Shown: positions 1 to 650 of the stretch, one piece after another | Position numbering within the stretch: position 1 is the first letter of the stretch | Layout of the letters: each line of letters opens with the position of its first letter | NCBI RefSeq assembly: GCF_003334405.1 | Contig: NZ_QOWM01000059.1 | Length of the DNA stretch: 650 nt | Source of the DNA: Escherichia coli | Lineage (GTDB): Bacteria > Pseudomonadota > Gammaproteobacteria > Enterobacterales > Enterobacteriaceae | Reading direction: 5' to 3' (one strand) | Program-made: the position numbers and the translations under genes | The notes under the pieces: model-generated | Told to the model about the DNA's origin: nothing | Seen by the model: only the letters and a program-made list of their open reading frames with translations | Database searches by the model: none

Positions 1-650
1 CTTTTCGCGCCGGTGTGTATTCCGGCTCCACCTGTCTGGCCAGTTGCTCCACCGTCAGCCCGCACTGCGCAAGCCACGCCCGGCTTTCACTGCTCACGCG
101 GTCTGCCCGGATTTCTTCCTCCAGCCTGTCCAGCAGCCGCACCAGTTCAGCCGGGAACACCACGCCGTGGCCGTTCTCACTCCCTTCCTGCTGGAGCGTC
201 TCTGCCAGGCTGCGCCGCTGCGCTTTTTCCCGCTCGCCGTTCTCTGTCTCGACCCGGATGAGCGGCGTGAAGCTTCCCGGCTCGTATACCGTCTGGATAC
301 GTGTGGTGTCAGTCTGCACCGTCGTCAGCCTGTCTCCGTCCCAGCCATACCACGTCACCTCCGGTTTACGCGACAGCGACATCCACCCCGTCAGGTCACG
401 CTCCCGCCGCCAGACCCGTTTTGCCATTCGCCGTCCCAGCGGGTCGTAGAGGTAGCGGCTCTCGACCAGTGGCTCGCCATGCTGTATCCGCGTGTAGAAC
501 ACCAGGCGGTGCTGGCTGTCGTAGTGGTAGTGGTGGGTCCGCTCGTCGTCCGTCCGTATCACACCCGCCGGGATGCGGTCCGTCTTCTCCGTCAGCCTGC
601 CGTATTCATCGTGGCGGTAGACATAGTGCGCATCCTCCGCGATGCGGTTA
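1..650 (-). CDS. rhs: Rhs family YD-repeat protein, conserved core region; internal fragment, partial at both ends (N-terminus beyond position 650, C-terminus beyond position 1)
   Basis: Hand translation of the reverse complement in the frame with codons 649..647 down to 4..2 gives 216 codons with no stop. The product contains YD-repeat motifs ([39 protein letters not shown]) and matches my recollection of the E. coli RhsA/B/C/D core. GC about 64% with G/C-rich third positions, typical of Rhs cores. Paralog cannot be resolved from this window; the symbol is a family-level placeholder. Confidence 0.95.
32..253 (-). other. Glu/Arg-rich segment of the Rhs core lacking YD motifs, probably helical
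   Basis: Translation [74 protein letters not shown] is dense in E/R/Q/L/A and has no Y-x-Y-D pattern. Helical character is inferred from composition only, not modelled. Confidence 0.5.
326..625 (-). other. Block of four degenerate YD (Rhs) repeats within the Rhs core coding sequence
   Basis: Protein-level motifs fitting the YD-repeat pattern (Y-x-Y-D-x2-G-R-L or close variants) at about 593..625 ([11 protein letters not shown]), 500..529 ([10 protein letters not shown]), 428..454 (YLYDPLGRR) and 326..352 (WYGWDGDRL). Spacing is about 25-35 residues. These are degenerate at the DNA level, not nucleotide direct repeats. Confidence 0.8.

Follow-up and report, generated by a model that had tools for sequence, protein, structure and literature searches.

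The window, by which we mean the whole stretch of 650 bases analysed here, is an ordinary internal piece of the known Escherichia coli RhsD/RhsE toxin-shell gene. We are highly confident that it encodes residues 938-1153 of a core of the RhsD/RhsE subfamily, that its locus is ambiguous and that a full-length gene is its more likely host. This reading is carried by the match of the encoded peptide to the core model, by exact copies of the window in full-length and in truncated genes, and by its position inside a longer tract over which rhsD and rhsE do not differ.

The window is an internal segment of an Rhs core gene

The gene occupies all 650 bases on the minus strand and is read from position 649 down to position 2 in a single uninterrupted frame of 216 codons (translation of window positions 1-649). 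The remaining two minus-strand frames of the window both contain stops and neither is open. The encoded peptide matched the NCBIfam model RHS_core (NF041261) over profile positions 941-1156 of 1261 with an E-value of 1.4e-141 and 473.6 bits, the curated cutoff of 2,000 bits being a whole-protein value that the window peptide, as a fragment, cannot attain. In RhsD and in full-length RhsE the window corresponds to residues 938-1153 (nt 2811-3460) of a core whose last residue is 1258. It begins at 75% and stops at 92% of the core length, and about 105 codons remain to the core end, which bears out the proposal of the first-pass annotation that the whole window belongs to the C-terminal third of an Rhs core. 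The complete codons are 938-1153; of codon 937 (the Asp of VWPD) only the last base falls within the window, at position 650, and of codon 1154 only the first (G), at position 1.

The GC content of the window is 64% (62-67% throughout), and the window thus shows the GC-rich composition of Rhs cores. YD repeats are present as YHYD and YLYD, with YxYD at peptide residues 41 and 66. The YD_repeat model TIGR01643 scored 18.8 bits on the window peptide (cutoff 15.8; E 0.0017) and 158 bits on the full-length host proteins. A Pfam search with the 216-residue peptide alone detected no significant domain, the best hit being RHS_repeat with an E-value of 0.69. Using phmmer, residues 2-136 of the window peptide aligned to the late YD-repeat shell of solved Rhs proteins with E-values from 1.5e-8 to 9e-5. 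The features of the window are as follows.

Positions 1-650, minus strand: internal segment of a RhsD/RhsE-subfamily core ORF (open frame, RHS_core match, exact copies)
Positions 242-649, minus strand: part of the Rhs shell wall made of YD-repeat beta-strands, residues 938-1073 (phmmer alignment to solved shells, YxYD motifs, TIGR01643)
Positions 2-241, minus strand: charged segment, residues 1074-1153 (RHS_core coverage and composition; no YD motif)
Positions 13-449, plus strand: overlapping antisense ORFs at 13-261 (82 aa) and 15-449 (144 aa) (mechanical ORF listing)

The charged segment contains 15 Asp/Glu and 12 Lys/Arg among its 80 residues. The E. coli core model includes it as a conserved stretch, yet it is not aligned by sequence to the shells 8cp6 and 8qj*. 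The two plus-strand ORFs matched no NCBIfam family at E<=0.1 and are most likely by-products of the GC-rich gene on the opposite strand rather than genes. An Rfam search of the window returned nothing at E<=1, and a search for repeats found no inverted repeats and only two short imperfect direct repeats.

The 650 bases occur in full-length and in truncated genes

The window was compared by megablast with 5,426 complete E. coli genomes and was found in 3,724 of them, with a median of three places per genome. The best match reached at least 99% identity in 1,790 records and only 90-95% in 1,529. Nearly all matching places were chromosomal, 15 of 10,781 being located on plasmids. A 100% copy was present in 21 of 60 rows evenly spaced down the ranking, that is in about one third of the matching records, which corresponds to a rough figure of 1,300 records with an exact copy of the window. 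K-12 contains two window-matching places only, rhsD and rhsE, and in one K-12 genome both are exact, at rhsD (L002 8072-8721) and at a 5'-truncated rhsE pseudogene (L003 8526-9175). The exact copies were examined in three kinds of context.

Context (i): full-length rhsD in the order ybbP-rhsD-ybbC, 1,426 codons, window at nt 2811-3460; K-12 (L002) and strain 720632 (L007)
Context (ii): full-length rhsE in the order yncH-vgrG-rhsE-ydcD, 1,407 codons, window at residues 938-1153; strains 720632, 510016 and L73 (L004-L006)
Context (iii): K-12 rhsE pseudogene, annotated as 'missing N-terminus', 682 codons (L001, L003)

In the full-length hosts the ORF is unbroken to the start (MSGKPAARQGD...), with 937 codons before the window. 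The expectation that the N-terminal part of the gene lies beyond coordinate 650 was therefore correct, the frame running on the minus strand, and so was the suggested extension of about 3 kb, since 2,810 nt of coding sequence precede the window in the full-length gene. The residues VWPD, which the first-pass annotation had placed before the window peptide, were also found: all three host contexts read ...LHPDSTLTVWPD (...TLTVWPD) immediately before it. Full-length rhsE has vgrG upstream, a linkage seen directly in strains 720632, 510016 and L73 and noted before for EHEC (PMC7216683). This deliverable full-length layout is absent at K-12 rhsE, which has 682 codons and has lost vgrG by deletion. 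The difference is also reflected in the RHS_core scores of the host proteins.

RhsD, K-12: 2,788 bits, profile 1-1261
RhsE, strain 720632 (full-length): 2,767 bits, profile 1-1261
RhsE ORF, K-12 (truncated): 1,165 bits, profile 734-1261

At the 3' side the contexts are alike. The core-end motif PxxxxDPxGL was present in every exact-match context examined, as PLQQIDPMGL or PIQVIDPMGL at residues 1249-1258, and TIGR03696 scored 82-86 bits at this core end. Behind it follows a tip of 149-168 aa and then ybbC or ydcD.

Deletions at the rhsE locus

To map the truncation, the K-12 rhsE locus was aligned to the intact locus of strain 720632. The two differ by a single 4,432-bp deletion (L004 3949-8380), which took vgrG, the 67 bp before it and 2,187 nt from the 5' end of rhsE. 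At the junction (L003 7885-7925) there is a 3-bp TTA microhomology, with the parental sites at L004 3946-3948 and 8378-8380; in gene sense the K-12-type junction joins ...GACTCGCTTA directly to ACCACCCTCAGCC. The remnant keeps all 650 bases of the window and about 620 nt of core upstream of it (the core extends to 623 nt beyond coordinate 650). Its ORF of 682 codons has no internal stop and comprises core residues ~733-1258 and the toxin tip, while the start is a fortuitous ATG (L003 7891) in former vgrG-upstream DNA. GC content is 36% in the upstream spacer, 63% in the core fragment, 41% in the tip and 27% in ydcD, with the jump from 36 to 63% located at the junction. The gene is flanked by yncH and ydcD, and no rhs gene lies upstream. 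Judging from this alignment, K-12 rhsE is a deletion remnant at its own separate locus and not a displaced cassette. It has been tabulated as a pseudogene, whereas rhsE of strain B has been listed as not a pseudogene (PMC3032704).

Two other strains show different, independent 5' deletions at this locus. Strain NCTC9100 has lost L004 3927-9092 (endpoint L009 6228) and keeps 558 window bases, and strain Z226-6 has lost L004 ~5862-9604 (endpoint L008 6001), keeps 46 window bases and has the 3' part of vgrG fused to the core remnant. Both deletions cut into the window, and neither of them can therefore be the source of a complete window. Including the K-12 type, the rhsE locus has undergone deletion on three or more separate occasions.

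Displaced orphan cassettes do not reach the window

Orphan cassettes are well known from Rhs loci (PMC2935791), one example being the orphan rhs of Salmonella Typhimurium (PMC7043789). The first-pass annotation had accordingly considered that the window could belong to a displaced orphan toxin/immunity cassette, in which a short 3' piece of the core, an alternative tip and an immunity gene are located downstream of a full-length rhs gene. A gene of this kind, ylbH, does adjoin rhsD-ybbC downstream. What it keeps of the core 3' end amounts to only 280 nt in K-12 and to 221 nt in strain 720632, with 83-86% identity, but these pieces correspond to nt 3495-3774 and nt 3526-3746, respectively, and do not overlap with the window at nt 2811-3460. 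Moreover, matches to the window in K-12 are limited to rhsD and rhsE, and the displaced-cassette layout was absent from all examined contexts that hold the complete window. As the core piece of ylbH follows the window in gene sense and is separated from it by 35 nt or more, we rejected this model and regard such an origin of the window as very improbable.

An identical tract of 848 bp is common to rhsD and rhsE

In K-12, rhsE and rhsD align without gaps over 1,577 nt with 95.6% identity. All 69 mismatches fall outside one tract of 848 bp with perfect identity (rhsE L003 8328-9175, rhsD L002 7874-8721; core nt 2613-3460). If the mismatches were placed at random, a gap of 848 bp would have a probability of at most 5e-22, and none of 20,000 permutations reached it. 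The tract is also common to the rhsD/rhsE pair of strain 720632.

The flanks of the tract differ by 5-16% per 100 nt. An intrinsically invariant stretch was considered as the cause of the identity and rejected, as 1,529 records match the window at only 90-95%. Invariance is also countered by the flanks, in which 36 of 58 differing codons differ synonymously.

The tract ends with coordinate 1 of the window (the 3' end in gene sense), and on the other side of the window 198 more bases are identical. The first difference between rhsD and rhsE is the base just outside coordinate 1, where codon 1154 encodes Ala in RhsD and Val in RhsE. In every genome sampled, the plus-strand base before position 1 was G in the rhsD allele (GCx) and A in the rhsE allele (GTx). 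Since the window lies inside the identical tract, it holds no information on the locus, nor on whether the 5' two-thirds of the gene are present. As far as the compared alleles show, it is without any base that separates rhsD from rhsE, or an intact from a truncated gene. The earlier view that the choice between a full-length gene and a fragment cannot be made from the window itself thus stands, as exact copies occur in both kinds of gene, while the displaced orphan that had been offered as the fragment does not fit.

This has a practical consequence for annotation and read mapping. The perfect repeat of 848 bp exceeds the window and the two loci are about 1 Mb apart, so that a window of 650 bases or a short read is unassignable to a locus, or to an intact as opposed to a decayed gene.

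The source is more likely to be a full-length gene

The two kinds of source can be weighed by their frequency. A full-length, uninterrupted D/E-type core from the start codon through the window was present in 3,864 of the 5,426 complete genomes (3,460-nt query covered by at least 80%), compared to 449 with the K-12-type junction (500-nt query covered by at least 80%), a large part of which are laboratory strains and as such frequent sources of sequence. A full-length host is therefore more likely. In about 850 further genomes with exact copies, these resided in full-length genes in all sampled cases. By rough inference, about one in five of the exact-match places is of the truncated kind. We put the probability of a full-length host at about 70-80%, falling to 50% should the window come from K-12, with the K-12-type remnant as the rest; these values derive from rough counts, namely the 21 exact rows among the 60 sampled, with one place shown per record. 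Rarer types of fragment that contain the whole window may exist.

The main competing explanation is that the window derives from a K-12-type rhsE pseudogene, that is from a remnant of 682 codons which would be undeliverable and either silent or expressed only intracellularly. The match of K-12 rhsE to the window is exact, the remnant retains all 650 bases together with 620 nt of upstream core, and the junction recurs in the 449 genomes mentioned above. On the other hand, K-12, the one junction-bearing genome checked, also has an exact window in its full-length rhsD, and we assume that other K-12-type genomes carry a full-length rhsD copy too. With an exact copy in both genes, the odds of the remnant are capped at 50% within K-12-type genomes, and the approximately 850 further genomes, with exact copies only in full-length genes in all sampled cases, lower them again. 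A weak hint against the reference K-12 record as the source is that it has both genes in plus orientation, in contrast to the minus-strand gene of the window. Altogether, we consider the remnant an unlikely source, albeit one with an appreciable chance, and retain the full-length RhsD/RhsE-type gene as the preferred host.

Possible exchange between rhsD and rhsE

Jackson et al. assigned rhsD to position 3 and rhsE to position 6 and inferred that the former arose from the latter by duplication (PMC2935791). We compared rhsD of strain 720632 (L007 41372-45652) with rhsE of the same strain (L004 6191-9964) and with K-12 rhsD (L002 5262-9035). Over 1,764 nt (core nt 685-2448; P <= 1e-16), the rhsD and rhsE genes of strain 720632 have the same sequence. 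Over the same interval, K-12 rhsD differs from every sampled rhsE allele by up to 16 per 100 nt. Outside this interval, the rhsD gene of strain 720632 agrees with that of K-12 at every base.

In the few genomes compared, the D/E-type cores are mosaics of each other, and the alternation of identical and divergent stretches suggests gene conversion between rhsD and rhsE, a modest point. The pattern in strain 720632 conflicts with an earlier conclusion that recombination of this kind is rare, should it take place at all (PMC2935791).

For the spacer from yncH to rhsE, Shimada et al. described an in vitro binding site of RpoD holoenzyme that overlaps H-NS, with the sequence TTGACT-17-TATTAC (PMC3946193). 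This sequence is located at approximately L003 7701-7729, about 165 nt upstream of the remnant ORF.

It may be speculated that the K-12 remnant is not inert, in that it could undergo gene conversion with rhsD and could be expressed intracellularly as a fusion of core fragment and toxin together with its immunity protein. The intact ORF of 682 codons, the presence of ydcD, the RNA polymerase site and the 848-bp tract common with rhsD are what suggest such an activity. For the expression, the analogy is the Salmonella orphan Rhs, which has been reported as a toxin-antitoxin-like module. We regard this proposal as doubtful, with only a small chance of being correct.

The genes rhsD and rhsE and the defective rhsE of K-12 are long established, and all central points of this analysis are already known. 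The biological consequence is small, and the practical lesson concerns annotation and read mapping.

Comparison with known Rhs systems

The late parts of the YD-repeat shells of Tse5 (8cp6; E 1.5e-8), of a Salmonella bongori Rhs protein (8qjd) and of the Rhs family protein 7q97 resemble residues 2-136 of the window peptide. These solved shells are only distantly related, and residues 137-216 of the peptide are unaligned in 8cp6 and 8qj* and aligned in part in 7q97. From its sequence, the charged segment (residues 1074-1153) may be an insertion in the shell that is specific for the subfamily.

From what is established for the family and its solved members, the YD repeats of the core would form a closed beta-sheet cocoon around the variable C-terminal toxin, which would be released within this cocoon by an aspartyl autoprotease located where the core ends (PxxxxDPxGL). 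Type VI secretion would rely on the N-terminal region to couple the protein to a VgrG spike, and the small downstream gene, ybbC or ydcD, would encode the presumed immunity protein. The window would then be part of the shell wall and would itself encode neither toxin nor immunity protein. E. coli K-12 is not known to have a type VI secretion system (T6SS), and its RhsD is therefore probably not delivered.

Among the known genes, K-12 rhsD (b0497; 1,426 aa, followed by ybbC) is the same as the window, with 100% identity over the 650 bases and in the same frame. The identity of rhsE (1,407 aa, in the order vgrG-rhsE-ydcD; pseudogene b1456 in K-12) is likewise 100% over the 650 bases, in both its intact and its deleted form. 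Unlike intact rhsE, the K-12 gene is without vgrG and without core residues 1 to ~732. In this respect it is similar to orphans such as ylbH and the Salmonella Typhimurium rhs (PMC2935791, PMC7043789), which likewise combine a 3' core piece with a toxin tip and are without the delivery part. K-12 rhsE differs from the ylbH orphan in its origin, as it arose from a deletion in place and not from the displacement of a tip.
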